From: a virus
Taxonomy: Duplodnaviria > Heunggongvirae > Uroviricota > Caudoviricetes
IMG/VR virus record: IMGVR_UViG_2579778631_000021
Reading direction: 5' to 3' (one strand)
DNA: 37,649 bases
Below, piece by piece: positions 1 to 37,649 of this stretch. Made by a program: the position numbers and the translations under genes. The notes under the pieces were generated by a model that did no database searches, had not been told where the DNA came from, and worked only from the letters and a program-made list of their open reading frames with translations. The first letter of the stretch is position 1; every line of letters starts with the position of its first letter.

Positions 1-1284
1 CTACTTCTTCGCCTCTGCAACCACTTTGCTACCCACGCCGCGGTTATTGTATTCCCACATGCGGTTGTAGTTAGTGTCATTCAGATTGCGCTGTACTTCG
101 TCGTTATCATCAACGCTGCCGGTGTTACCCGCGAATGGACGATTGGAAATCACCGCATCGGCCCACGGTTTCGCCGTGTTAAAACCTTCGTTGATGGCGC
201 TATCACGGATCACCACCTGACCGTTGGTATTGGCATCAACATCCAGCGAGCGGCCCAGTTGCGCCACACCATCACCGGAAGCATTGAAACGGCTGTTTAC
301 GGCGAGGAAACCGTAGTAAATGTTGGACAGCGTAGCCGGTGCAAACACATACGCTTCTTGCTGGGTACGGGAGTTCACCACGCGGAATTCGGTGTTATCG
401 AACACCACTGCGCCGCGACCAGAAACGATATCCACATCTCCTTCGATGTAACTGTTGGTCACCAGCGTACGCGGCTGACGATTCGTTTCCAGACGGTTTT
501 GCACACCGCTGTTGGTGACAAAGAAGGTGTTCTGACGACCGAGAATGTTGACGTTATTGATCTGCACTTTGTCGCCATCAGTACGCAGTGCCACCGCCGG
601 ATGGTTACCCGCATCTACGCTATCGCCCAGCGTGTTTTCGATGGTCAGGTTTTGCAGTTGCAGGCCATTGTTTTGTGACCAGAAGACCGCAGAGCAGAGA
701 ACACCGATACTGTCGCTGCGTTTACTCTGGCAGCTATCGTACATATACCACGCCGGTTTACCTGGCATATATTTGCCGCGCGGGTTGACGTCGTGACGCC
801 AGTCGGCAGGGCTCATGCCACCATCAAGGGAAAGCCCAATCTTCACATCAATCGGTTTTTCACCTGTACCGTACAGAGTAATTCCACCCGGAGCGGCAGG
901 GACATACACCGTTCCCTGATACTCACCAGGCATCACGGCAATATACTGGCGCTTGTTGGTACGCTTGATAATTGCCGCATCTACCGCCGCCTGAATCGTG
1001 GTATGCGTTACACCTTGAGTACCCGCCGGGCCGACAACAAAGTCAGGTTGCGCAGGCAGGGTAATCGGGGAAGGATTCCACGCTGCCGCACCTGGTGTCA
1101 GGGATGCAAAATAGTGTTGAGCATCGAAATTCTGCGCTTCTTTTGCCGACAGAATCGGGCGCGAAGAGGTACCAGGCGCGGTTTGATCAGAAGGACGTTG
1201 ATCGGGCGGTGTTGAGCTACAGGCGGTCAGCGTCACGCCAAAAGCCAATGCCAGCGCCAGACGGGAAACTGAAAATGTGTTCAC
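1..1284 (-). CDS. ybhC: Host outer-membrane lipoprotein YbhC (pectinesterase-like), flanking lambda attB
   Basis: Complete 427-aa ORF with lipoprotein signal peptide (LTAC lipobox); recalled as the host gene on the ybhC side of attB-lambda; immediately followed by att core. Confidence 0.7.
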   Translation of the reverse strand: MNTFSVSRLALALAFGVTLTACSSTPPDQRPSDQTAPGTSSRPILSAKEAQNFDAQHYFASLTPGAAAWNPSPITLPAQPDFVVGPAGTQGVTHTTIQAAVDAAIIKRTNKRQYIAVMPGEYQGTVYVPAAPGGITLYGTGEKPIDVKIGLSLDGGMSPADWRHDVNPRGKYMPGKPAWYMYDSCQSKRSDSIGVLCSAVFWSQNNGLQLQNLTIENTLGDSVDAGNHPAVALRTDGDKVQINNVNILGRQNTFFVTNSGVQNRLETNRQPRTLVTNSYIEGDVDIVSGRGAVVFDNTEFRVVNSRTQQEAYVFAPATLSNIYYGFLAVNSRFNASGDGVAQLGRSLDVDANTNGQVVIRDSAINEGFNTAKPWADAVISNRPFAGNTGSVDDNDEVQRNLNDTNYNRMWEYNNRGVGSKVVAEAKK

Positions 1285-1330
1285 AGGTTGCTCCGGGCTA
1301 TGAAATAGAAAAATGAATCCGTTGAAGCCT

Positions 1331-1345
1331 GCTTTTTTATACTAA
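1331..1345. other. attL: attL core (lambda-type overlap region GCTTTTTTATACTAA)
   Basis: Exact lambda att core; left flank GTTGAAGCCT matches the attB B arm, right flank GTTGGCATTATAAAAAAGCATTGCTTATCAATTTGTTGCAACGAACAGGTCACTATCAGTCAAAAT matches the lambda P' arm with Int arm-type sites. Confidence 0.85.
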
Positions 1346-1418
1346 GTTGGCATTATAAAAAAGCATTGCTTATCAATTTGTTGCAACGAACAGGTCACTA
1401 TCAGTCAAAATAAAATCA

Positions 1419-2489
1419 TTATTTGATTTCAATTTTGTCCCACTCCCTGCCTCTGTCATCACGATACTGTGATGCCATGGTGTCCGACTTATGCCCGAGA
1501 AGATGTTGAGCAAACTTATCGCTTATCTGCTTCTCATAGAGTCTTGCAGACAAACTGCGCAACTCGTGAAAGGTAGGCGGATCCCCTTCGAAGGAAAGAC
1601 CTGATGCTTTTCGTGCGCGCATAAAATACCTTGATACTGTGCCGGATGAAAGCGGTTCACGACGAGTAGATGCAATTATGGTTTCTCCGCCAAGAATCTC
1701 TTTGCATTTATCAAGTGTTTCCTTCATTGATATCCCAAGAGCATCAACATGCAATGTTGTTGGGATGGCAATTTTTACGCCGGTTTTGCTTTGCTCGACA
1801 TAAAGATAGCCATCTACGATATCAGACCACTTCATTTCGCATAAATCACCAACTCGCTGCCCGGTAACAACAGCCAGTTCCATTGCAAGTCTAAGCCAAC
1901 ATGGTGATGATTCTGCTGCTTGATAAATTTTCAGGTATTCGTCAGCCGTAAGTCTTGATCTCCTTACCTCTGATTTTGCTGCGCGAGTGGCAGCGACCGG
2001 GTTTGTTGTTATATGGCCTTCAGCTATTGCCTCTCGGAATGCATCGCTCAGTGTTGATCTGATTAACTTGGCTGACGCCGCCTTGCCCTCGTCTATGTAT
2101 CCATTGAGCATTGCCGCAATTTCTTTTGTGGTGATGTCTTCAAGTGGAGCATCAGGCAGACCCCTCCTTATTGCTTTAATTTTGCTCATGTAATTTATGA
2201 GTGTCTTCTGCTTGATTCCTCTGCTGGCGAGGATTTTTTCGTAGCGATCAAGCCATGAATGTAACGTAACAGAATTATCACTGTTGATTCTCGCTGTCAG
2301 AGGCTTGTGTTTGTGTCCTGAAAATAACTCAATGTTGGCCTGTATAGCTTCAGTGATTGCGATTCGCCTGTCTCGGCCTAATCCAAACTCTTTACCCGTC
2401 CTTGGGTCCCTGTAGCAGTAATATCCATTGTTTCTTATATAAAGGTTAGGGGGTAAATCCCGGCGCTCATGACTTCGCCTTCTTCCCAT
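1419..2489 (-). CDS. int: Tyrosine integrase, lambda Int type
   Basis: 356-aa ORF; N-terminal arm-binding region and C-terminal catalytic motifs (HELRSL...LGH...Y); sequence recalled as essentially lambda Int; adjacent to attL. Confidence 0.95.
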   Translation of the reverse strand: MGRRRSHERRDLPPNLYIRNNGYYCYRDPRTGKEFGLGRDRRIAITEAIQANIELFSGHKHKPLTARINSDNSVTLHSWLDRYEKILASRGIKQKTLINYMSKIKAIRRGLPDAPLEDITTKEIAAMLNGYIDEGKAASAKLIRSTLSDAFREAIAEGHITTNPVAATRAAKSEVRRSRLTADEYLKIYQAAESSPCWLRLAMELAVVTGQRVGDLCEMKWSDIVDGYLYVEQSKTGVKIAIPTTLHVDALGISMKETLDKCKEILGGETIIASTRREPLSSGTVSRYFMRARKASGLSFEGDPPTFHELRSLSARLYEKQISDKFAQHLLGHKSDTMASQYRDDRGREWDKIEIK

Positions 2490-18590: not shown

Positions 18591-18914
18591 ATGAAGATGC
18601 CAGAAAAACATGACCTGTTAGCCGCCATTCTCGCGGCAAAGGAACAAGGCATCGGGGCAATCCTTGCGTTTGCAATGGCGTACCTTCGCGGCAGATATAA
18701 TGGCGGTGCGTTTACAAAAACAGTAATCGACGCAACGATGTGCGCCATTATCGCCTGGTTCATTCGTGACCTTCTCGACTTCGCCGGATTAAGTAGCAAT
18801 CTCGCTTATATAACGAGCGTGTTCATCGGCTACATCGGTACTGACTCGATTGGTTCGCTTATCAAACGCTTCGCTGCTAAAAAAGCCGGAGTAGAAGATG
18901 GTGGAAATCAATAA
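18591..18914 (+). CDS. S: Holin S (class I, dual-start MKM)
   Basis: 107 aa [39 protein letters not shown]... recalled as lambda S; sdi hairpin CCCC-TTAT-TGGGGG just upstream. Confidence 0.95.
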
Positions 18915-19374
18915 TCAACGTAAGGCGTTCCTCGATATGCTGGCGTGGTCGGAGGGAACTGATAACGGACGTCAGAAAACCAGAAATCATGGTTATGACG
19001 TCATTGTAGGCGGAGAGCTATTCACTGATTACTCCGATCACCCTCGCAAACTTGTCACGCTAAACCCAAAACTCAAATCAACAGCAGCCGGACGTTACCA
19101 GCTTCTTTCCCGTTGGTGGGATGCCTATCGCAAGCAGCTCGGACTGAAAGACTTCTCTCCGAAAAGCCAGGACGCTGTGGCACTGCAACAGATTAAAGAG
19201 CGTGGCGCTTTACCGATGATTGATCGCGGTGATATCCGTCAGGCTATCGACCGTTGCAGCAATATCTGGGCTTCACTGCCTGGCGCTGGTTATGGTCAGT
19301 TCGAGCATAAGGCTGACAGCCTGATTGCAAAATTCAAAGAAGCGGGTGGAACGGTCAGAGAGATTGAGGTATGA
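18898..19374 (+). CDS. R: Endolysin R (lytic transglycosylase)
   Basis: 158 aa [39 protein letters not shown]... recalled as lambda R. Confidence 0.95.
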
Positions 19375-19808
19375 GCAGAGTAACCGCGATTATCTCCGCT
19401 CTGGTTATCTGCATCATCGTCTGTCTGTCATGGGCTGTTAATCATTACCGTGATAACGCCATGACCTACAAAGAGCAGCGCGATAAAGCCACATCCATCA
19501 TCGCTGATATGCAGAAGCGTCAACGTGATGTAGCTGAACTCGATGCCAGATACACAAAGGAGCTTGCTGATGCTAACGCGACTATCGAAAGTCTCCGTGC
19601 TGATGTTTCTGCTGGGCGTAAGCGCCTGCAGGTCGCCGCCACCTGTGCAAAGTCAACGACCGGAGCCAGCGGCATGGGCGATGGAGAAAGCCCAAGACTT
19701 ACAGCAGATGCTGAACTCAATTATTACCGTCTCCGAAGTGGAATCGACAGGATAACCGCGCAGGTTAACTACCTGCAGGAATACATCAGGACGCAATGCC
19801 TTCGATGA
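19371..19808 (+). CDS. Rz: Spanin inner-membrane subunit Rz
   Basis: N-terminal TM segment, coiled-coil periplasmic domain; overlaps R stop. Confidence 0.85.
19570..19755 (+). CDS. Rz1: Spanin outer-membrane lipoprotein Rz1 (embedded in +1 frame of Rz)
   Basis: Signal peptide with lipobox LLGVSAC, Pro-rich mature region; fully embedded in Rz. Confidence 0.7.
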
Positions 19809-27397: not shown

Positions 27398-27628
27398 ATG
27401 ACACACATGATCTTTCGTCATGGCGACATGAAGAAGTGGAAAGGCGTTGGCTACGACTTTGAAATCGTGAAAGCCGAAGAGCTTCAGGAATATCTGGATG
27501 CTGGTTGGTTTTCACATCCTGATGACCTTTTGAAGGATGTTGCAGAGCCAGAGCCAGAAGAAAAACAGCGTAAAAAGCCTGGTCGAAAACCTAAGGCGGC
27601 AGCATATGAACCTGACAACGAAGGGTGA
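27398..27628 (+). CDS. Small hypothetical protein (76 aa) between coat and gp4
   Basis: Start [14 protein letters not shown] after terminator; basic Pro/Lys-rich C-terminus. Confidence 0.4.
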
Positions 27629-28106
27629 TTTAGTTCTTGCGGCATTACGTAAACTCGGTGTGGCATCAAATGCCACGTTAACCGATGTCGAACCGCAGTC
27701 TATGGAAGACGGCGTCAACGACCTTGAAATGATGATGGCTGAATGGCTTGGCGGTGATGTGTCACCTGGTATCAACGTTGGCTACATTTTCGCTGATGCA
27801 GATGTCTCTCCAGATCCGGGCGATGAGCACGGTTTATCAAATAACGCTATCAATGCTGTCATTTTCAACCTTGCCTGCCGCATTGCACCGGATTATGCGC
27901 TGGAAGCGCCTGCAAAACTTATAACCACTGCCAGATACGGGAAAGAGCGACTCGTCAAACTGTCTGCAATGGACAGAGCAAAAGCCGCTAAATGTAAGTC
28001 CGGTTATCCAAACCGTATGCCTGTTGGTAGCGGTAATCAGTTGGCGAAGTGGAACGGTTGGAATTACTTCCACCGAAAGGAACCTTGCGATAACGGGAGC
28101 GAATAA
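27606..28106 (+). CDS. Head completion/tail accessory protein gp4-like
   Basis: 166 aa [33 protein letters not shown]... resembles P22 gp4. Confidence 0.8.
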
Positions 28107-29525: not shown

Positions 29526-30226
29526 TGGCGGATTCATCACTGAATAATCCTGTCGCGGTTCAGGCTACGCGCCTTGATGCTTCAATTTTGCCACGCAATA
29601 TATTCAGCCAGTCTTACCTGCTGTATGTCATTAATCAGGGGGCTGATGTCGGCGCAATTGCCGGGAAGGCAAATCAGGCTGGTCAGGGCGCTTACGATGC
29701 TCAGGTGAAAAACGATGAACAGGATGTCGAACTGGCTGATCACGACGCAAGAATCACCGCAAACACAAAAGCGATAAATCTCCTTGAGGTCAGGTTAACA
29801 ACCGCCGAAGGGAAGATAGTCGTACTGCGTAGCGATGTTGATTACTTGCTGGATGAGGTTATCGATATTCAGGCGCATCTGGTCACTGTTGACCAAAGAC
29901 TGGATGGCGTAGAAAGCGATGTCTCTGGCATTAAGAGTGATTACGTATCGAAAACCGTAACAGAATCGCAGTCTCTTGCGTCACCGCTGGATGTAAAAAC
30001 ATCATATTCAGTTGATGGAATTCAGGTTGTTGGAGCAAGAAATACCGGATGGACTGCAGCCACAGGTACGCCACTTCTTGGCTCATTCAACGCTAACCAG
30101 TCATACACGGTCGGCACTACGTACACACAATCCGAAGTCGCAGCTATCGCTACAGGTTTGGAGCAGGCGCGGCAGCGTATTCTGGCGCTTGAAACAGCAC
30201 TTAGATTACATGGGCTGATTGACTGA
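29525..30226 (+). CDS. Tail needle gp26-like
   Basis: 233 aa [36 protein letters not shown]... with trimeric coiled-coil heptads and conserved C-terminus [17 protein letters not shown]. Confidence 0.9.
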
Positions 30227-30681
30227 TGATTACATTCAAACCAACGCGAAACATCGACCTGATCGAAGCAGTCGGAAATCACCCTGACATTATCGCCGGT
30301 AGCAACAACGGCGATGGATACGACTACAAACCTGAATGCCGTTACTTTGAGGTGAACGTGCACGGGCAGTTCGGCGGAATTGTTTACTATCAGGAGATTC
30401 AGCCGCTGACCTTTGATTGCCACGCCATGTACCTGCCAGAGATTCGCGGATTCAGCAAGGAAATCGGGCTGGCTTTCTGGCGATACATTCTGACTAACAC
30501 CACCGTTCAGTGCGTCACATCGTTCGCTGCACGCAAATTCCGCCACGGGCAGATGTACTGCGCAATGATTGGCCTTAAGCGTGTAGGAACCATCAAGAAA
30601 TACTTCAAAGGCGTGGATGACGTGACGTTTTACAGCGCCACACGCGAAGAACTAATCGACTTCCTGAATAACGGGAGATAG
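30226..30681 (+). CDS. gp14-like ejection/assembly protein
   Basis: 151 aa ORF at the P22 gene 14 position; start overlaps gp26 stop. Confidence 0.7.
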   Translation: MITFKPTRNIDLIEAVGNHPDIIAGSNNGDGYDYKPECRYFEVNVHGQFGGIVYYQEIQPLTFDCHAMYLPEIRGFSKEIGLAFWRYILTNTTVQCVTSFAARKFRHGQMYCAMIGLKRVGTIKKYFKGVDDVTFYSATREELIDFLNNGR

Positions 30682-30683
30682 CC

Positions 30684-31376
30684 ATGTTATATGCATTTAA
30701 GCTGGGCAGAAAACTGCGCGGCGAGGAACCTTATTGCCCTGAAAAAGGCGGGAAAGGTGGTAGCTCTGATAAAAGCGCAAAGTATGCCGCAGAAGCTCAG
30801 AAGTATGCAGCAGACCTGCAAAATCAGCAGTGGCAGACGATCATGAAAAACCTTGCTCCGTTCACGCCTCTTGCGGAGCAGTATGTTAACCAGCTTCAGA
30901 ACCTTTCCAGTTTAGAAGGTCAGGGGCAGGCACTTAATCAGTATTACAACTCTCAGCAGTATAAAGACCTTGCAGGTCAGGCTCGTTACCAGAGTCTTGC
31001 TGCTGCGGAGGCTACGGGAGGACTTGGTTCGACAGCCACAAGCAATCAACTGGCTACGATCGCGCCGACTCTCGGTCAGTCTTGGTTATCAAACCAGATG
31101 AGCAATTACAACAATCTGGCAAACGTTGGGCTTGGTGCTCTGCAAGGTCAGGCAAACGCCGGGCAGACGTACGCCAACAACATGAGCAGCATTGCACAGC
31201 AAAGCGCAGCTCTTGCCGCTGCTAATGCCAACAAACCATCAAGTCTTCAGACAGCAATTAGTGGCGGAACGTCTGGTGCGATTGCCGGTGCAGGTCTTGC
31301 CAGCCTTTTGGGAACATCAACACCTTGGGGCGCTGGCATTGGTGCTGGTATCGGATTGCTTGGCTCGTTGTTTTAA
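30684..31376 (+). CDS. Ejection protein gp7-like
   Basis: 230 aa with Gln/Ala/Gly-rich region and hydrophobic C-terminus. Confidence 0.8.
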   Translation: MLYAFKLGRKLRGEEPYCPEKGGKGGSSDKSAKYAAEAQKYAADLQNQQWQTIMKNLAPFTPLAEQYVNQLQNLSSLEGQGQALNQYYNSQQYKDLAGQARYQSLAAAEATGGLGSTATSNQLATIAPTLGQSWLSNQMSNYNNLANVGLGALQGQANAGQTYANNMSSIAQQSAALAAANANKPSSLQTAISGGTSGAIAGAGLASLLGTSTPWGAGIGAGIGLLGSLF

Positions 31377-31385
31377 GGGGTAATC

Positions 31386-32717
31386 ATGGCTACTTGGCAA
31401 GGATCAAATGGCGGATTGTTAGCTGGTATCGGCGGCGTCAACTCAAACGCCCCGAGCGTAAATGACATCGGCAATACGCTTCAGCTTATCAGGCAGAACA
31501 ATGATATTGAGCGTTCAGGCGCTAACAATGTTGGGCTGACTGCTTTGCAAGGTCTTTCAGGTATTGCAGGGGTGTTTCAGCAGGAAAAGCAGGCTCAGCG
31601 GCAGAAAGAATTTCAGCAGGCGTACGCTAATGCTTATGCGTCTGGTGATCGCGGTGCTTTGCGTCAGTTGGCTACTCAATATCCAGACCAGATTGAATCC
31701 GTTCGTAAAGGCATGGGATTCATTGATGAAGATCAGCGTAATTCTATCGGCACCTTAGCGGCTGGCGCACGCCTTGCGTCATCGTCTCCAGAAGCAATGC
31801 AATCATGGCTGCAAAACAACGCCGGTGAGTTAGCTCGTGTTGGCGTTAATCCTCAGGACGTCGCTCAGATGTACCAACAGAACCCGCGGCAGTTCGGCGA
31901 ATTTGTCGATCACCTGGGGATGAACAGTCTCGGACCCGAAAAATACTTTGACCTACAGGATAAAATGCAGGGTCGCCAGGTTACCATGCGCGGTCAGGAC
32001 CTGGATTCGCAAACCGCCGCTCGGAATCAGGCAATCACAATGCGCGGGCAAGATATCCAGGCGAATTTAGGTCAGCAGCGCATTAATCTGGACGCAGAAA
32101 CAAACCGCATTAACAACGAAAATAAGCGCCTTGACCGGATGCTATCAGCAGAAACTAACGACCTGAAGCGCCAGGAAATACAGAGCCGCATAGCAGCCAA
32201 CAACCAGCAGTTGCAGCAGAAGCAGCAAGCGCTAAATGATGGCTACAAAGACGGCATCAACACTCTCACAACAAGCATGTTCACTCTGAACGATATCGTT
32301 AGTTCTCCTTCACTTAAGAGCATTACAGGCTTACGTGGAGTAATCCCCAACGTTCCAGGCTCACAGGCTGCAGACACTCAGGCACGACTTGATACCTTTA
32401 AATCCCAAGCATACCTGACAGCGGTTCAGGCCATGCGAGGCATGGGCGCACTTTCTGATGCCGAGGGCAAAAAGCTCGACCAGGCTGTTGGTTCGCTGCA
32501 GAACTCGCAGAGCGAGGAGTCCTTTCGTCGCAACGCTGGCGTCATCCTGAACACGCTCAACCAGAAGCGTAATGAGGCGGTTGGTAAGTACGTTCAGCAA
32601 AACGGTATCAAGCGAGTGGAAGCGCCTCAGGCTTCTATAGATTACCTGAAGCAGCACCCCGAGCTGTCAATCGACTTCATTAATCGCTACGGATATCTTC
32701 CATCTTTGGGGCAGTAA
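31386..32717 (+). CDS. Ejection protein gp20-like
   Basis: 443 aa at the P22 gene 20 position. Confidence 0.75.
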   Translation: MATWQGSNGGLLAGIGGVNSNAPSVNDIGNTLQLIRQNNDIERSGANNVGLTALQGLSGIAGVFQQEKQAQRQKEFQQAYANAYASGDRGALRQLATQYPDQIESVRKGMGFIDEDQRNSIGTLAAGARLASSSPEAMQSWLQNNAGELARVGVNPQDVAQMYQQNPRQFGEFVDHLGMNSLGPEKYFDLQDKMQGRQVTMRGQDLDSQTAARNQAITMRGQDIQANLGQQRINLDAETNRINNENKRLDRMLSAETNDLKRQEIQSRIAANNQQLQQKQQALNDGYKDGINTLTTSMFTLNDIVSSPSLKSITGLRGVIPNVPGSQAADTQARLDTFKSQAYLTAVQAMRGMGALSDAEGKKLDQAVGSLQNSQSEESFRRNAGVILNTLNQKRNEAVGKYVQQNGIKRVEAPQASIDYLKQHPELSIDFINRYGYLPSLGQ

Positions 32718-35111
32718 ATGGCTAATTACCGTGATTTGTTAGAGCAGGCTGGCGCACGTTACGGTGTGCCAGAAGGGTTGATGACTGCACTGGGTGCCAA
32801 GGAGTCTTCTTACAACCCTGCCGCAGTAAGCTCCGCCGGGGCTGTAGGATTGACTCAGGTCATGCCTGGGACATGGCGTGATATGGGTTATACCGATGAG
32901 CAAATGCAAAACCCCGAATATCAGGCTGACGCTGGCGCGCGCTATCTGGCAAAGATGTACCAGCAGTTTGGTAACTGGCGTGACGCTCTTCAGGCTTATC
33001 ACGACGGTCCCGGCAACGTTATGAAGGCAAAGCGTGGTGAATATACTCCAGGACCTGAAGGCCGCGGTTACGTTGATGATCGCTTTGCTCAATGGGCGGG
33101 TGACCCGGTGACAGACTCAACAGTCGAACAGCGCGCCACCTCTGCAAAGGTACATCCTCAGCAAGACCCTAACAACCCGTTTGCACAACTGGAAGCACAG
33201 TCATCCGAACAAGTATCGGCATCAGGCGTGCAGTCAGACCCAAATAATCCATTTGCTCAGATTGAGCAGCAGGCAGACAGTCAGCAGCCACCTCAACCCG
33301 TAAGTTCTGTCACACCGAAACCTGTTCAGCAGCAAGGCGGAATAATGTCTGACCTTGGTAATGGACTTGCTGAAACCGGGCGCGGCTTACTACAGGCAGG
33401 AATCAACGTAGCGAACATACCTGCTGAACTCACTGATGCTGTAACAAGCGCGGCGGCTTGGGCTGGCGGTAAACTCGGTATTGGCGATGGTACATATCAA
33501 CCAGCACCACGAGTAACAACGCAGGGATTAGAGCAGGACTTTGGCCTTCAGCAAGGCGCGCTGACTCCACAAACGACAGAGGGAAGGGTATTTGCTGAAG
33601 CATTGCCTTACCTCACTCCTGCTGGCGTTGAGAGAACGGCAACACAGGCACCAACACTTGCTGGTCGAATTGCTCATGGGGCAACACGACTTCTCGCAGA
33701 AAACGCAGTTGGATCACTTGCTGCAAATAGTGCGAAAGATGATGCGGAAGCACTCGCCACCGATTTAGGCGTTGGTGTGTTGGCTGGCGGTGCTATTAAC
33801 GCTGCCGGACGTGGATTAGGTGCTGCTTATCGTGGCGTTCGTGGTGCTATTGCGCCAGAAGCGCAGCAGGCTATCAGATTTGCAGAGCGTGAAGGAGTTC
33901 CTCTGCACACCACAGACCTGTTACAGCCTACTTCCCGCGTCGGGAAAATGGCGCAGACTACAGCAGAAAATATCCCCCTGGCTGGCACAAGCGGAATGAG
34001 AGCAACGCAACAGGAAGCGAGAAGTCAGTTGGTGCAGAGATTTGCTGATAAATTCGGCGAGTACGATCCGGCAGTTGTTATTGACAGCCTTAAAGCGAAA
34101 ACATCAGGAATTCGGCGTGCCGCCGGTAATCGACTGGAGCAGGTTCAGAATGCTATGGCGGGAATAAACATTCAGCCTGCAAGAGCAATTCAGCAGATTG
34201 ATACAGAAATATCTAACCTGCAGAAGCTTGGTAAGGTTGCTGATAACGAGACTATTTCAAAACTTCAGTCCTATCGTGATGAGCTTGTTCGCAATGCTGG
34301 TCCTGATGGCCCGGTAAATCTGGATTTGAAGCAATTAAGCGATCTGCGCAGCCAGTTCAGAATGGACGTGAAGGGGGAGCGACCAGTGTTACCAAACCGT
34401 TCCGATGCTGCCATTCAGCGCGTTTACAAGGCGATGACAGACGATATCAATGGTGCCATTGGTCAGAATCTTGGCAACGATACTCTCCGTAAATATCAGC
34501 AGGCCAATGCCGTCTACGCTGACGAAGCGGCGAAACTAAAGAATACCAGGCTGAAGAATGTTCTCATGAAAGGCGACCTGACGCCGGAAGTTGTCAACAA
34601 CATGCTATTCAGCAAGAACAAATCGGAAATTAAGACGCTGTATAACTCAGTTGGTCGTGTTGGCAGGGCGCAAATGCGCAATGGCATCATTGGAAAGGCG
34701 ATGGAGAAATCAGGTGGTTCCCCTGACCAGTTCCTTCGACAGCTTAACATCCTGCAAAACCAGACTGGCATCACATTTAAAGGTCAGGATGCTGCTTATC
34801 TGAAAGGATTGAAAAACTACCTTCAATCCACGCAGCAGGCTGCAAAAGCGGCAGTAACAACACCAACAGGGCAGCAAACCATCCCGTTCATTATCGGATA
34901 TGGGACAGCAATGAACCCTGCGACAACTGGCGCAGCAGTAAGCTACGGACTTCTGACTCGCGCCTATGAGAGCGAGCCATTCAGAAATGCAATGCTCCGA
35001 ATGGCAAACACCCCACGCGGATCAACAGCGTTTGAGAAAGCCATGCAGCAGGCACAAAAGGCCATTAACGCCCTGACTCAGGGGGCTAAGTCTGATGCGT
35101 TGTCAGAATAG
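32718..35111 (+). CDS. Ejection protein at gp16 position with N-terminal soluble lytic transglycosylase (SLT) domain
   Basis: 797 aa; N-terminal KESSYNPAAVSSAGAVGLTQVMPGTW...AYHDGPG matches SLT-domain motifs; remainder is Ala/Gly/Gln-rich. Confidence 0.7.
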   Translation: MANYRDLLEQAGARYGVPEGLMTALGAKESSYNPAAVSSAGAVGLTQVMPGTWRDMGYTDEQMQNPEYQADAGARYLAKMYQQFGNWRDALQAYHDGPGNVMKAKRGEYTPGPEGRGYVDDRFAQWAGDPVTDSTVEQRATSAKVHPQQDPNNPFAQLEAQSSEQVSASGVQSDPNNPFAQIEQQADSQQPPQPVSSVTPKPVQQQGGIMSDLGNGLAETGRGLLQAGINVANIPAELTDAVTSAAAWAGGKLGIGDGTYQPAPRVTTQGLEQDFGLQQGALTPQTTEGRVFAEALPYLTPAGVERTATQAPTLAGRIAHGATRLLAENAVGSLAANSAKDDAEALATDLGVGVLAGGAINAAGRGLGAAYRGVRGAIAPEAQQAIRFAEREGVPLHTTDLLQPTSRVGKMAQTTAENIPLAGTSGMRATQQEARSQLVQRFADKFGEYDPAVVIDSLKAKTSGIRRAAGNRLEQVQNAMAGINIQPARAIQQIDTEISNLQKLGKVADNETISKLQSYRDELVRNAGPDGPVNLDLKQLSDLRSQFRMDVKGERPVLPNRSDAAIQRVYKAMTDDINGAIGQNLGNDTLRKYQQANAVYADEAAKLKNTRLKNVLMKGDLTPEVVNNMLFSKNKSEIKTLYNSVGRVGRAQMRNGIIGKAMEKSGGSPDQFLRQLNILQNQTGITFKGQDAAYLKGLKNYLQSTQQAAKAAVTTPTGQQTIPFIIGYGTAMNPATTGAAVSYGLLTRAYESEPFRNAMLRMANTPRGSTAFEKAMQQAQKAINALTQGAKSDALSE

Positions 35112-35200
35112 CTTCGCAAACACCAGGAACGTGCAAAAACCAAATATGTAGAACGCAATATTCAGCATATCTCTTTGCATATATCCTCCGTAACTGATAG

Positions 35201-35461
35201 TTAGCTGCTGTCTTTTTTATATAGCTCTTTGAGCGTATCAAAGACAATTTTCTTAACCATATCAGATTGTTGTTCTGCCATACGCTCTGCATCGTCAATG
35301 TAAACTGATGCAGAGCTTTGTTTAGCCAATGATTCTTCAATCGCTGCAATTATCTCTGAGTTCAGCGACCTGTTATTCATCTTCGCGCGCTGTTTAATTT
35401 TCGCGTGGAGTTCATGCGGAAGTCTCAAGTGAAACTGCGCCTCGTCGTATTTGCTGTACAT
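35201..35461 (-). CDS. mnt: Mnt-like ribbon-helix-helix repressor
   Basis: 86 aa from MYSKYDEAQFHLRLPHELHAKIKQRAKMNNRSLNSEII...; resembles P22 Mnt (RHH N-terminus, C-terminal DAERMAEQQSDMVKKIVFDTLKELYKK). Confidence 0.75.
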   Translation of the reverse strand: MYSKYDEAQFHLRLPHELHAKIKQRAKMNNRSLNSEIIAAIEESLAKQSSASVYIDDAERMAEQQSDMVKKIVFDTLKELYKKDSS

Positions 35462-35582
35462 CCTTGATGCCTCACCAGTTGGGTGGAATGGCATCGTAAC
35501 CTACTGGATAAATACTCAATAGTACCATTTCGGTATGTAATCATATCATGGTTGCATCATATCATTCGTCTGGAGCAATGAA

Positions 35583-37649
35583 ATGTCAGATATCACCGCA
35601 AATGTTGTGGTAAGCATGCCTTCGCAACTCTTCACTATGGCGCGTTCTTTTAAAGCCGTAGCCAATGGCAAAATTTATATCGGTAAAATTGACACTGACC
35701 CTGTAAATTCTGAAAACCAGATTCAGGTTTATGTGGAGAACGAAGATGGCTCTCACGTTCCTGTATCGCAACCAATCATCATTAACGCTGCTGGTTACCC
35801 GGTATATAACGGACAGATTGCCAAATTCGTTACCGTGCAAGGCCATTCAATTGCTGTTTATGATGCGTATGGTGCGCAGCAGTTCTATTTTCCTAATGTG
35901 CTGAAGTATGACCCTGACCAACTAAGACAGGAGTTAGATGGTGTTGGTGGGGTTAATTTAGTAAATGGGGCATTACATGGTGCCATGGATTCAGATCCAA
36001 ATGTTGGTTTTAAAATCACCACATCCTCAGGTGAGATTTACGAATATGCTCCGGGAATTACAGGTCTTGCCGATGGGTTTTCGGTATCAGCATCACAGTT
36101 ATATTTAACAAGGAATGGCCTATCTTATAAATACTCTTCACCTCATAACACACTGGTTTGGCCATCTCAGTATATCGATACGAGTGCTGATGCGAAATAT
36201 TCAATTGAATCTATTATGGCGCACGGATTGAATGTGGACCTTAACGGAACTACAGTTAAAGCCAGCACCATTAATATTACGAAAGATTTGATTAATGGTG
36301 AAATTGTTGCTATCGGAGATGAAGGATCATTTATAACAGTAAACTCATGCATGCTTAACAATATTAAAGTTAACTGCAATATGATGGCAATTAGAAGGCC
36401 TGTTCATATCAAAACAGGGGCTGTTAATCCAGTAGTTAAGAATGTTGATGTTTTTGATAGTAATGGTTCTCAACTAACTTATGGTATTTTCATAGATGCA
36501 AATTCTGTATTGAATTTTGTCGTTGATAACATATCAATACATAATATTACCACCATTGGAAATGGTATTCAGGGTGATGTAATTGGGCCATGTCGAGGGA
36601 TTCTTGTAGGAACGGCACTTGATCCAGTACCATCAAATGATGATGAGGTATCAAGTGGAGTTATAAGTAACGTAAGGATTTACAAGCTAAACCCTTGGGA
36701 AGATGCTGATGGTGTTGTTATTCAGATTTACAACTCATCATCAAATATGCTCAGCGGGAAGAAAATAAAGGTTGATGGCGTTTATACTTACAATGCACTT
36801 AAGCGAGCAGTCAAAGTTCAGGCCAATGATGTTACAGTAACAAATGTATTTGCGGTTTGTGATGACGCCTCAGCAACTAACCCTATGTATAGTTGTGTTA
36901 GTGTTTATGGTAGTTCCTGTGTTGTTCGTGGTGTTAGTGGGCGAGGAAGGATTGGCAATGGTGTTGATTCATCTGATGGGTTCAATACTATCAGTGATGT
37001 TTATCTTAAGACGACAGCAACCTATGAGCTAAGCGCAGGTCTACAGATAACTTCCGGGCAGGTAAACGCGAATAACATTCACTCTGAAGGATCAAGATAC
37101 ATAGTCGCAATTCGGGCAGTTAATAACACAACACCGTATGTAAATATTAATGGCATATATGGGCAAGGTTATGACGGGGCGATTTTGTTAGAAATCAGAT
37201 ACGGATTTAATATTGGTAATGTTTACTTAAGTGATATTTCAGTATCAAGTTCAAATCCCACAAGGTCTTCATTCTTCTTTGATATATTATCAGGTGGAAG
37301 TATATCTCTGATCAGCGTGTCAGACGTCAAGAGAATCAGTCAGGCATTTAACGGAGCAGATATAAACATTTCTGGTGGGGTTGCAAAAGCTATTGTTAAA
37401 AATTCAGTTTTTGAGAGTGGTTCGTCAAGCGTTGGTGTATCAATGACAACTGGTACTTTAGTTGCATCAAATATATCAGCACAAAGTAAATCTTATGCTG
37501 TCAACGCTGTACAAACCACAAATTCACTTATAAATAACATTGATGGAATCGTTAGGGTTGATAGCACAACCAACAGTAATGTCGGCCTTTACAGAGGGAT
37601 TACCTCTGTTGGGACTAACACAGGACTGAAAACTGTTTTCTATCAATAA
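35583..37649 (+). CDS. Tailspike protein (P22-type head-binding domain + divergent receptor-binding beta-helix)
   Basis: First ~110 aa ([42 protein letters not shown]...VLKYDPDQ) match the conserved P22 gp9 N-terminal domain; remaining ~575 aa is a Ser/Asn/Val/Gly-rich repeat-like domain with lower GC. Confidence 0.9.

Follow-up and report, generated by a model that had tools for sequence, protein, structure and literature searches.

Gene organization of the ejection-protein region

The window (the whole 37,649-nucleotide stretch of DNA analysed, IMG/VR record IMGVR_UViG_2579778631_000021) is a P22-like prophage, in which gp14, gp7, gp20 and gp16 follow one another upstream of an immI remnant and a tailspike gene, colinear with P22, Sf6, IME10 and Sf101. 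The gene under study follows the gp7 and gp20 homologues and is thus, as an earlier sequence-only reading had stated, the last ejection-protein gene with 797 aa (Table 1). It encodes a gp16-type ejection (pilot) protein, and its ATG directly abuts the gp20 stop codon TAA at 32715–32717. A minus-strand mnt homologue and the tailspike gene lie downstream. A sequencing or assembly fusion artefact was ruled out, because IME10, phiKp_30 and 52 complete E. coli genomes carry the same 797-aa frame, as does a cluster of 1,295 sequences at 90% identity.

Table 1. Location of the ejection-protein genes and of the parts of the gp16-type protein in the window
Feature	Position	Strand	Extent	Basis
gp7 homologue, first ejection protein	30684..31376	+	230 aa	PF25688 P22_gp7, E=1.8e-134
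gp20 homologue, second ejection protein	31386..32717	+	443 aa	PF16928 Inj_translocase, E=7.9e-68; phrog_2534
gp20 C-terminal part, apparently one mosaic block with the SLT module	31923..32717	+	~265 aa	Sf101 identity; Sf6 divergence
SLT-gp16 fusion gene, third and last ejection protein	32718..35111	+	797 aa	complete ORF
SLT domain (family-1 lytic transglycosylase, lysozyme-like)	32718..33098	+	aa 1–127	Pfam SLT aa 7–110; AlphaFold; Foldseek
GAG codon of Glu29, predicted catalytic acid, E-S motif	32802..32804	+	aa 29	alignment with Slt70 478 and T7 gp16 37
Low-complexity Q/P-rich linker with two DPNNPFAQ(L/I)E motifs	33099..33332	+	aa 128–205	predicted disordered
Motif copy 1, DPNNPFAQLE	33165..33194	+	aa 150–159	sequence
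Motif copy 2, DPNNPFAQIE	33237..33266	+	aa 174–183	sequence
Mosaic junction, ...PVQQ/QGGIMSDLG...	33330..33335	+	Gln205/Gln206	identity break points
gp16 body, Sf6 type	33333..35111	+	aa 206–797	PF26808; 97% identity to Sf6 gp13

The body is far closer to Sf6 gp13 than to P22 gp16 (35% identity) or HK620 gp16 (25%). It is covered by phrog_770, "DNA transfer protein" (E=2.7e-240; aa 108–797 against profile positions 3–666 of 668), and both PF26808 (Phage_P22_gp16) and PF01464 are precomputed on database proteins 99% identical to the 797-aa ORF, from which the PF26808 membership was taken. P22 gp16, Sf6 gp13 and HK620 gp16 occupy the same gene position and have the same core start, MSDLG...QAG.N.ANIP. 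These proteins (609, 665 and 722 aa, respectively) begin with short N-modules of 53–73 aa, and an SLT signal is absent from the P22 and Sf6 proteins even at E<=1 and from the HK620 protein at E<=0.01. Aligned with the three of them, the 797-aa protein shows similarity only from about aa 206 onwards. The enlargement relative to P22 gp16, which the sequence-only reading had noted from a P22 gp16 length of about 609 aa (P22 gene 16 is confirmed at 609 aa), is therefore real and due to an N-terminal addition.

An N-terminal lytic transglycosylase domain

The N-terminal addition starts with an SLT domain. PF01464 matches aa 7–110 with an E value of 2.9e-25 and a score of 88.6 bits, where the gathering score is 21.3 (profile positions 2–110 of 117), which is far beyond chance. 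PHROGs also support SLT, NCBIfam gives sub-threshold matches to Slt, MltC, MltD and EmtA, and the sequence matches to solved structures include Slt70 (E=5.4e-11), MltC, MltE and T7 gp16 (6.6e-4). In the AlphaFold model the domain adopts a lysozyme-like all-alpha fold, with pLDDT of 84–97 over aa 1–110 and a drop past about aa 127, and every top Foldseek match in the PDB is a lytic transglycosylase (LtgA, MltD, Slt, Slt70, MltE and T7 gp16, 7eyb_I; probability 1.00). The SLT domain alone is confident in the full-length model, whose mean pLDDT is 55, and the low confidence of the gp16 body results from its shallow alignment. The N-terminal SLT-type domain of the sequence-only reading, for which a domain search had been proposed as a check, is thus backed by profiles, solved structures and predicted fold alike. 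When the N-module alone was used as query, a large protein database returned mostly truncated fragments and small bacterial SLT proteins, 36–54% identical, which revealed little about domain architecture; a search with the gp16 body told more.

The catalytic glutamate context claimed in that reading, quoted there as GAKESSYNPAAVSSAGAVGLTQVMPGTW, is present in the 797-aa ORF, and Glu29 aligns with the established catalytic residues of E. coli Slt70 (Glu478) and T7 gp16 (Glu37); for T7 gp16, Moak and Molineux reportedly identified Glu37 as catalytic in 2000. Among 55 aligned SLT homologues, Glu29-Ser30 is invariant (55 of 55), and the E-S, GL(T/M)Q, DAGARY and AY(H/N)xG motifs are conserved. The G-L-M-Q signature appears as G44-L-T-Q47, with Thr in 11 of the 55 homologues, and the A-Y-N-x-G signature as A93-Y94-H95-D-G97, where His95 takes the place of an Asn found in 54 of 55 and is a lineage trait common to IME_EC2. 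The motifs are kept in the IME_EC2 homologue at 42% identity, which argues for functional constraint. With its active-site motifs intact, the SLT domain is predicted to be catalytically competent.

Comparison with T7 gp16 and other SLT proteins

The C-domain of E. coli Slt70, MltC and MltE (GH23) have the same fold and catalytic motifs as the SLT domain described here. However, these housekeeping enzymes, periplasmic or lipoproteins, bear signal sequences and additional domains, whereas the present domain forms a fusion with a virion protein.

T7 gp16 (internal virion protein D; PDB 7eyb, 7k5c) is likewise the third and last of the internal proteins that are ejected together, and it shares the N-terminal SLT (28% identity over 130 aa; pairwise E=1e-10). 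In both proteins a non-globular segment follows the enzyme, and that of T7 tapes onto the tunnel protein. Residues 1–156 of T7 gp16 (gp16-N) form the transglycosylase, which is needed for genome internalisation at highly cross-linked peptidoglycan, and the "molecular tape" after it binds gp15 (PMC8954989). The gp16 proteins of T7, T3 and phiYeO3-12 were listed as internal-head lytic transglycosylases by Latka et al. 2017 (PMC5380687). Like proteins of the T7 gp16 type (phrog_342), the 797-aa protein is a last ejection protein that starts with a lytic transglycosylase, but its body is not homologous to their large C-terminal body, and no similarity to T7 gp16 was found beyond the SLT domain (aa 3–188 for phrog_342 and aa 3–112 for the T7 gp16 chains in the PDB). 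Moreover, T7 gp16 has 1,318 aa, and according to the literature a core stack is assembled before ejection by the T7 proteins but not by the P22-like ones. From this comparison, the 797-aa protein would work like T7 gp16 while standing outside the T7 gp16 family.

Murrayvirus and related phages (IME_EC2 gp26, Lumpael, Skarpretter, Sortsne and Kosakonia phages) also carry an N-terminal SLT at the gp16 position, 55–63% identical over aa ~4–150. Their proteins share AYHDGPG, a low-complexity linker, the gp16 core motif and the P22-type virion gene order, but differ in a length of about 1,007 aa, an unrelated body and an FDQF motif that flanks the SLT on both sides.

Mosaic origin of the N-terminal module

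The SLT domain and linker together are a mobile module at the N-terminus, and the break points in DNA identity place a sharp junction at its end. Identity to Sf101 (95.7%) stops at nt 33335, while identity to Sf6 (94.8%) and VSe13 (92.0%) starts at nt 33330, and this Q-rich point is where the gp16 core meets at least six different N-modules. Upstream, the segment 31923–33329 has no DNA similarity to Sf6 except one short 71% piece and is 95.7% identical to Sf101. The N-module is 99–100% identical in proteins of IME10, phiKp_30, Sf101, Huey, Dewey, APC_JM3.2 and E. coli and Cronobacter prophages, where it precedes gp16 bodies of three kinds and invariably follows a single type of gp20 C-terminus. 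For example, Sf101 (911 aa) and Huey (875 aa) combine the same N-module with other gp16 bodies, 25% identical to that of the window.

In the linker, pLDDT falls below 50 over aa 143–152 and from aa 159 on, and no similarity to Sf6 or P22 proteins was found. Its two motif copies show synonymous third-position differences in 8 of 10 codons, indicating that the peptide is conserved and that the DNA is not recently duplicated. A recent tandem DNA duplication was therefore ruled out, and a repeat search left the copies unpaired. Related NFFDQFD and N(I/V)FDQF motifs are present in other gp16 N-modules.

Proposed role of the SLT domain

It is quite likely that the SLT domain is a lytic transglycosylase that is ejected as part of the gp16 pilot protein and cuts peptidoglycan locally in the periplasm during DNA delivery. 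Delivery of the activity with the ejected proteins, also proposed in the sequence-only reading, is suggested by gene position and homology: P22 gp16 is described in the literature as packaged in virions, ejected at infection and associated with membranes, and the same arrangement as proposed here is experimentally established for T7 gp16. In this process, the SLT domain (aa 1–127) would be tethered via a flexible linker of ~80 residues to a standard Sf6-type gp16 body, and the whole protein would be packaged in the head and expelled through the tail at infection alongside gp7 and gp20. It would then refold in the periplasm, where local cleavage of glycan strands by the SLT domain, with Glu29 as acid catalyst, would make an opening in the peptidoglycan mesh for the DNA conduit across the envelope, and the gp16 body would perform its usual job at the inner membrane.

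Most P22-like phages are without the SLT domain (665-aa clusters that lack it have 2,252, 1,304 and 1,036 members), so the domain cannot be essential for such an ejectosome. P22 virions were reported to have muralytic activity in gp4, and the window carries a gp4 homologue. This majority and the gp4 activity both count against the entry role proposed above, and His95 in place of the Asn of the AYNxG motif does so as well.

More tentatively, the N-module may matter mainly through its linker and NPFAQ-type motifs, which would dock gp16 on the C-terminal part of gp20, with the SLT domain as an accessory passenger of conditional benefit. The SLT module always accompanies one gp20 C-terminal type, which is 97–100% identical in the window, Sf101, Huey and the Cronobacter prophage although its flanks diverge, while the N-terminal part of gp20 and the gp16 body vary, and the two partners are found in nearly the same number of E. 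coli genomes (69 for the gp20 C-terminus, 70 for the N-module). In addition, a minimal gp16 N-module consists of little beyond two NFFDQFD motifs, Sf6 gp16 and gp20 function in P22 solely when exchanged together (PMC10883804), and the "molecular tape" of T7 gp16 on gp15 offers a precedent. However, the gp20 C-terminus and the SLT module are adjacent in the DNA and their linkage may be passive, and the motif was defined post hoc and is missing from two N-module types. A universal one-to-one rule between gp20 C-terminal type and gp16 N-module type held in nine genomes and was rejected on HK620, in which a gp16 N-terminus of Sf6 type (67%) is paired with an unrelated gp20 C-terminus (30%). Because this prediction failed, linkage to the gp20 C-terminus is claimed for the SLT module alone. 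Docking of this kind is compatible with entry-time peptidoglycan cutting as the main explanation.

A further step, which we regard as rather doubtful at present, is that the SLT domain, the NPFAQ-motif linker and the gp20 C-terminus might have co-adapted as an interface cassette that corresponds to the "molecular tape" between gp15-C and gp16-N of T7. If so, the periplasmic tunnel would carry the N-terminus of P22-type gp16, the ejectosomes of P22-like and T7-like phages would have their architecture in common, and gp16 N-modules would be interchangeable heads that tune envelope penetration.

It is improbable that the SLT domain has been kept as a catalytically inactive anchor, which would bind peptidoglycan and hold the periplasmic conduit in place on an uncut sacculus. 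His95 in place of a near-invariant Asn and the dispensability of the domain in most relatives would fit such an anchor, but Glu29-Ser30 and the other active-site motifs are intact and conserved in homologues only 42–63% identical, and dead enzymes have usually lost the catalytic acid. Least credible, and by a very small chance at best, is an action late in the cycle that aids lysis or virion release rather than entry: late expression of a muralytic fold as part of the structural operon would suit it, but a complete separate lysis cassette is present, the protein carries no annotated signal peptide and is encoded inside the ejection-protein operon, and its counterpart, the homologous domain of T7, functions during entry. 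That cassette, at 18591–19808, comprises a holin, a lambda-R-type endolysin (1am7, E=2.6e-105) and Rz, and it also ruled out the SLT domain as the phage endolysin.

Distribution and naming of SLT-gp16 proteins

Among 5,426 complete E. coli genomes, 70 contain the N-module; the Sf6-type gp16 body is present in 363 genomes. The 52 genomes with the 797-aa protein have it named "lytic transglycosylase domain-containing protein"; full-length copies also exist in IME10 (98.9% identity), whose records leave the gene unannotated, and in phiKp_30 (93.9%). The phages with the fusion (IME10, phiKp_30, Sf101, Huey, Dewey and APC_JM3.2) are viable. The SLT-gp16 architecture is not new, being already abundant and correctly named in public databases, while a 2022 review stated that such activity is absent from P22-like phages. 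Our literature search found no experiment on the 797-aa protein or on any P22-like SLT-gp16, and the papers on Sf101, Kapi1 and E212 leave the SLT domain undiscussed; an earlier description may exist elsewhere.

The SLT module belongs to a minority of P22-like phages and prophages, and its importance is modest. Its use lies in natural near-isogenic pairs, such as the window or IME10 against Sf6 gp13 (a 97%-identical body with a different N-module). Together with the occurrence of one module on three bodies, these pairs make the role of a virion-borne transglycosylase and the gp20-gp16 interface cleanly testable, and P22-like phages are a genetically tractable system for such tests of DNA delivery.

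The gp16 proteins of VSe13 and S9-5, named "lytic transglycosylase", were considered as further examples and ruled out, since they contain no SLT domain. This annotation error is widespread, and thousands of gp16 proteins without SLT are named lytic transglycosylases.

SLT domain at the head of the gp16-position protein

The 797-aa product that the sequence-only reading had placed last among the ejection genes was found as described: the ORF includes the string quoted there, and the TAA of the preceding gene (gp20) stands immediately 5' of its ATG. The genes around it follow the classic P22 late-operon order.

Coordinates of the prophage and host genes discussed in the text
Position	Strand	Feature	Domain or remark
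1-1284	minus	pectinesterase-like gene	host DNA
1419-2489	minus	lambda-type integrase	arm-binding domain
18898-19374		endolysin, lambda R-type lysozyme	PDB 1am7, E=2.6e-105
27537-28106		gp4 homologue	PF11650
28107-29525		gp10	PF11134
29525-30226		gp26, tail needle	
30226-30681		gp14	
30684-31376		gp7	PF25688
31386-32717		gp20	PF16928
32718-35111	+	SLT-gp16 fusion, 797 aa	between gp20 and mnt homologue
35201-35494	minus	mnt homologue	Arc and Mnt domains
from 35583		tailspike	P22 head-binding domain

The N-terminal SLT domain proposed in that reading is backed by profile, structure-sequence and fold matches. Pfam SLT (PF01464) matches aa 7-110 (E=2.9e-25, 88.6 bits vs a gathering score of 21.3), and the same stretch is matched by several PHROG families of virion-borne transglycosylases, including phrog_342 'internal virion protein with endolysin domain'. 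A search of solved-structure sequences returned E. coli Slt70 (E=5.4e-11), MltC, MltE, P. aeruginosa Slt and MltD, and more weakly T7 gp16. In the AlphaFold model, pLDDT is 84-97 over aa 1-110, confidence tapers to about aa 127, and pLDDT is <50 over aa 143-152 and from aa 159 on; the best PDB fold matches are lytic transglycosylases throughout, T7 gp16 (7eyb_I) included.

The proposed catalytic glutamate is also present. Residue 4 pairs with Slt70 residue 453 and the alignment is gap-free to the motif, so that Glu29 lies opposite Slt70 position 478, the catalytic Glu of that enzyme. In pairwise BLAST against T7 gp16 (28% identity over 130 aa, E=1e-10), Glu29 is opposite Glu37, reportedly identified as catalytic by Moak and Molineux in 2000. 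With 54 diverse SLT homologues aligned, Glu29-Ser30, Gly44, Gln47, Thr52, Tyr76, Tyr94 and Gly97 are invariant. The sole unusual residue is His95 (Asn in 54 of 55 aligned sequences), and it is a lineage trait, because the 42%-identical IME_EC2 protein likewise has AYHDGPG.

The gp16 PHROG profile is spanned end to end by aa 108-797 (E=2.7e-240), and database proteins 99% identical to this one carry both PF01464 and the newer Pfam family PF26808 'Phage_P22_gp16'. By tblastn and multiple alignment, similarity to other gp16 proteins begins only at aa ~206-208, from where identity is 97.5% to Sf6 gp13, ~75% to gp16 of phage L, ST64T and their relatives, and 35% to P22 gp16. No SLT signal was detected in P22 gp16, Sf6 gp13, VSe13 and S9-5 even at E<=1, or in HK620 gp16 at E<=0.01. 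Thus an N-terminal module, in which the SLT domain occupies aa 1-127 and a Q/P-rich linker aa 128-205, accounts for the ~190 residues by which the protein exceeds P22 gp16. The length of about 609 aa given for P22 gp16 in the sequence-only reading agrees with gene 16 (609 aa).

Exchange of N-modules at a Q-rich junction

DNA identity to Sf101 is 95.7% over 30005-33335, and the sequences are then unrelated up to 35193. Identity to Sf6 is 96% over 30226-31922, essentially absent over 31923-33329, and 94.8% from 33330. The two breakpoints in gene 16 agree within 6 nt, at Gln205/Gln206 (...PVQQ|QGGIMSDLG...). In a set of 120 close body homologues, this one Q-rich point is where at least six distinct N-modules attach to the core: the SLT module (225 aa ahead of the QAG core motif), the Sf6 type (93 aa), the P22 type (71-73 aa), a minimal type with two NFFDQFD motifs (53-56 aa), and types of 67 and 42 aa. 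The SLT module, 99-100% identical, fronts at least three different bodies: Sf6-type (797 aa in the window, IME10 and phiKp_30; 813 aa in a Cronobacter prophage), Sf101-type (911 aa) and HK620-type (Huey, 875 aa).

In some database proteins (P0137, P0165, P0158-P0160, P0164, P0198, P0162), N-terminal parts of tail needle gp26, gp7, gp20 or a NinG-like PF05766 protein are joined directly to the gp16 core near this junction; such proteins probably arose by internal deletion in decaying prophages or as assembly chimeras.

Linkage with the gp20 C-terminus

The block differing from Sf6 also takes in the C-terminal ~265 aa of gp20 (gp20-C). Identity among the window, Sf101, Huey and the Cronobacter prophage is 97-100% in gp20-C and 99-100% in the gp16 N-module, while it drops to 74% in the N-terminal part of gp20 and to 25% in the gp16 body. 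Of the complete E. coli genomes, 69 have this gp20-C type and 70 the SLT N-module (67 and 67 at >=80% coverage). Similar pairing was found in P22 and locus L013, and in Sf6 and S9-5. A general rule predicted an Sf6-type gp20-C in HK620, which has an Sf6-type gp16 N-module, but only 30% identity was found; the linkage is complete for the SLT module in this sample, yet no general law. Physical adjacency by itself could explain it. The linkage is also compatible with the finding that Sf6 gp16 and gp20 work in P22 only if swapped jointly (PMC10883804), and with T7, in which gp16 tapes onto the gp15 C-terminal part through the segment that comes after its SLT domain (PMC8954989).

Repeated motifs in the linker

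The linker contains DPNNPFAQLE (aa 150-159; 33165-33194) and DPNNPFAQIE (aa 174-183; 33237-33266). Between these two copies, 8 of the 10 codons differ synonymously at the third position, so the peptide is under selection. The SLT domain itself ends in one more related string, DDRFAQW. N-x-F-(A/D)-Q-(F/L/I)-(D/E) recurs across otherwise unrelated N-modules (the window, IME_EC2 gp26, P0225, P0210); the 53-56-aa module is little beyond two copies, and in IME_EC2 NIFDQFD and NVFDQFG flank the SLT domain. F-x-Q/E-like motifs occur as NFFDQFD (twice) in the minimal module, QYFNEVV in Sf6 and EYFAGQ in P22, and are absent from the 67-aa and 42-aa types. We hypothesize a docking role for these motifs, whose pattern was set post hoc.

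Possible role in DNA delivery

This protein is a bona fide gp16 whose N-terminus carries an intact, flexibly tethered SLT domain. Virion-associated lytic transglycosylases are already known as parts of ejection proteins, and the feature is of that kind. By analogy with T7, it would be packaged, ejected and then refolded in the periplasm, and the SLT domain may cut glycan strands locally so that the gp7/gp20/gp16 conduit crosses the sacculus; as in T7, cleavage is probably needed only for a highly cross-linked wall. Phages carrying the fusion are viable. Since most P22-like phages are devoid of the SLT domain and muralytic activity was reported for P22 gp4, its function is accessory, not essential.

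The lysis cassette (holin, lambda R-type lysozyme, Rz) is separate. Its endolysin has no Pfam match at E<=0.001. Lambda R-type lysozyme is itself a transglycosylase, and if this assignment holds, the prophage encodes a transglycosylase for exit and another, unrelated one for entry.

Public records and annotation

Public databases already contain the SLT-gp16 architecture. The IME10 protein is 98.9% identical, and its 797-aa gene (L002:3501-5894; NC_019501.1 31064-33454) is unannotated: the feature table ends at gene 20, with 'none' given under the match. Sf101 gp13 is annotated 'transglycosylase', and 52 complete E. coli genomes contain the gene at full length under the name 'lytic transglycosylase domain-containing protein'. 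The 90% cluster has 1,295 members. As in the window, Murrayvirus and allied phages have related SLT-headed proteins at the gp16 position. The searchable literature, which did not cover Casjens & Thuman-Commike 2011, holds no discussion of an SLT domain in P22-like phages, and the claim of a 2022 review that such activity is absent from them is too broad.

The same NCBI name is also borne by gp16 proteins of 665 aa or similar length that have no SLT domain, in clusters of 2,252, 1,304 and 1,036 members. Examples are VSe13 (L003:2276-4273), S9-5 (L004:2273-4249), clusters P0161, P0163 and P0167, and many others, and no lytic transglycosylase domain was found in them by Pfam at E<=1, precomputed Pfam or NCBIfam. 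The name appears to have spread via similarity to the gp16 body of fused proteins. The present analysis adds the exact mosaic junction, the linker motifs, this annotation creep and the gp20-C linkage, to which HK620 is an exception.

Prophage context

The host gene and integrase indicate an integrated P22-like (Lederbergvirus-type) prophage, one end of which is the left end of the window (1-2489). Of the phages sequenced so far, HZ41 and IME10 come nearest: ~50% of the window's first 25 kb aligns at 97%. The immI region (35112-35582) contains a single mnt homologue, and no arc, ant or sieA match was found among ORFs >=60 aa; this reduced region is like that of Sf101 and unlike that of P22. It seems that the mnt-type repressor has been retained in the absence of the gene on which it is known to act.

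The tailspike gene (35583-37649) extends past the window end. Its N-terminal head-binding domain is P22-like, and the receptor-binding part best matches a PHROG family of tailspikes with the annotation colanic-acid-degrading. The G+C content falls to 38% there vs ~50% in the remaining window, which suggests that the receptor-binding module was horizontally acquired.
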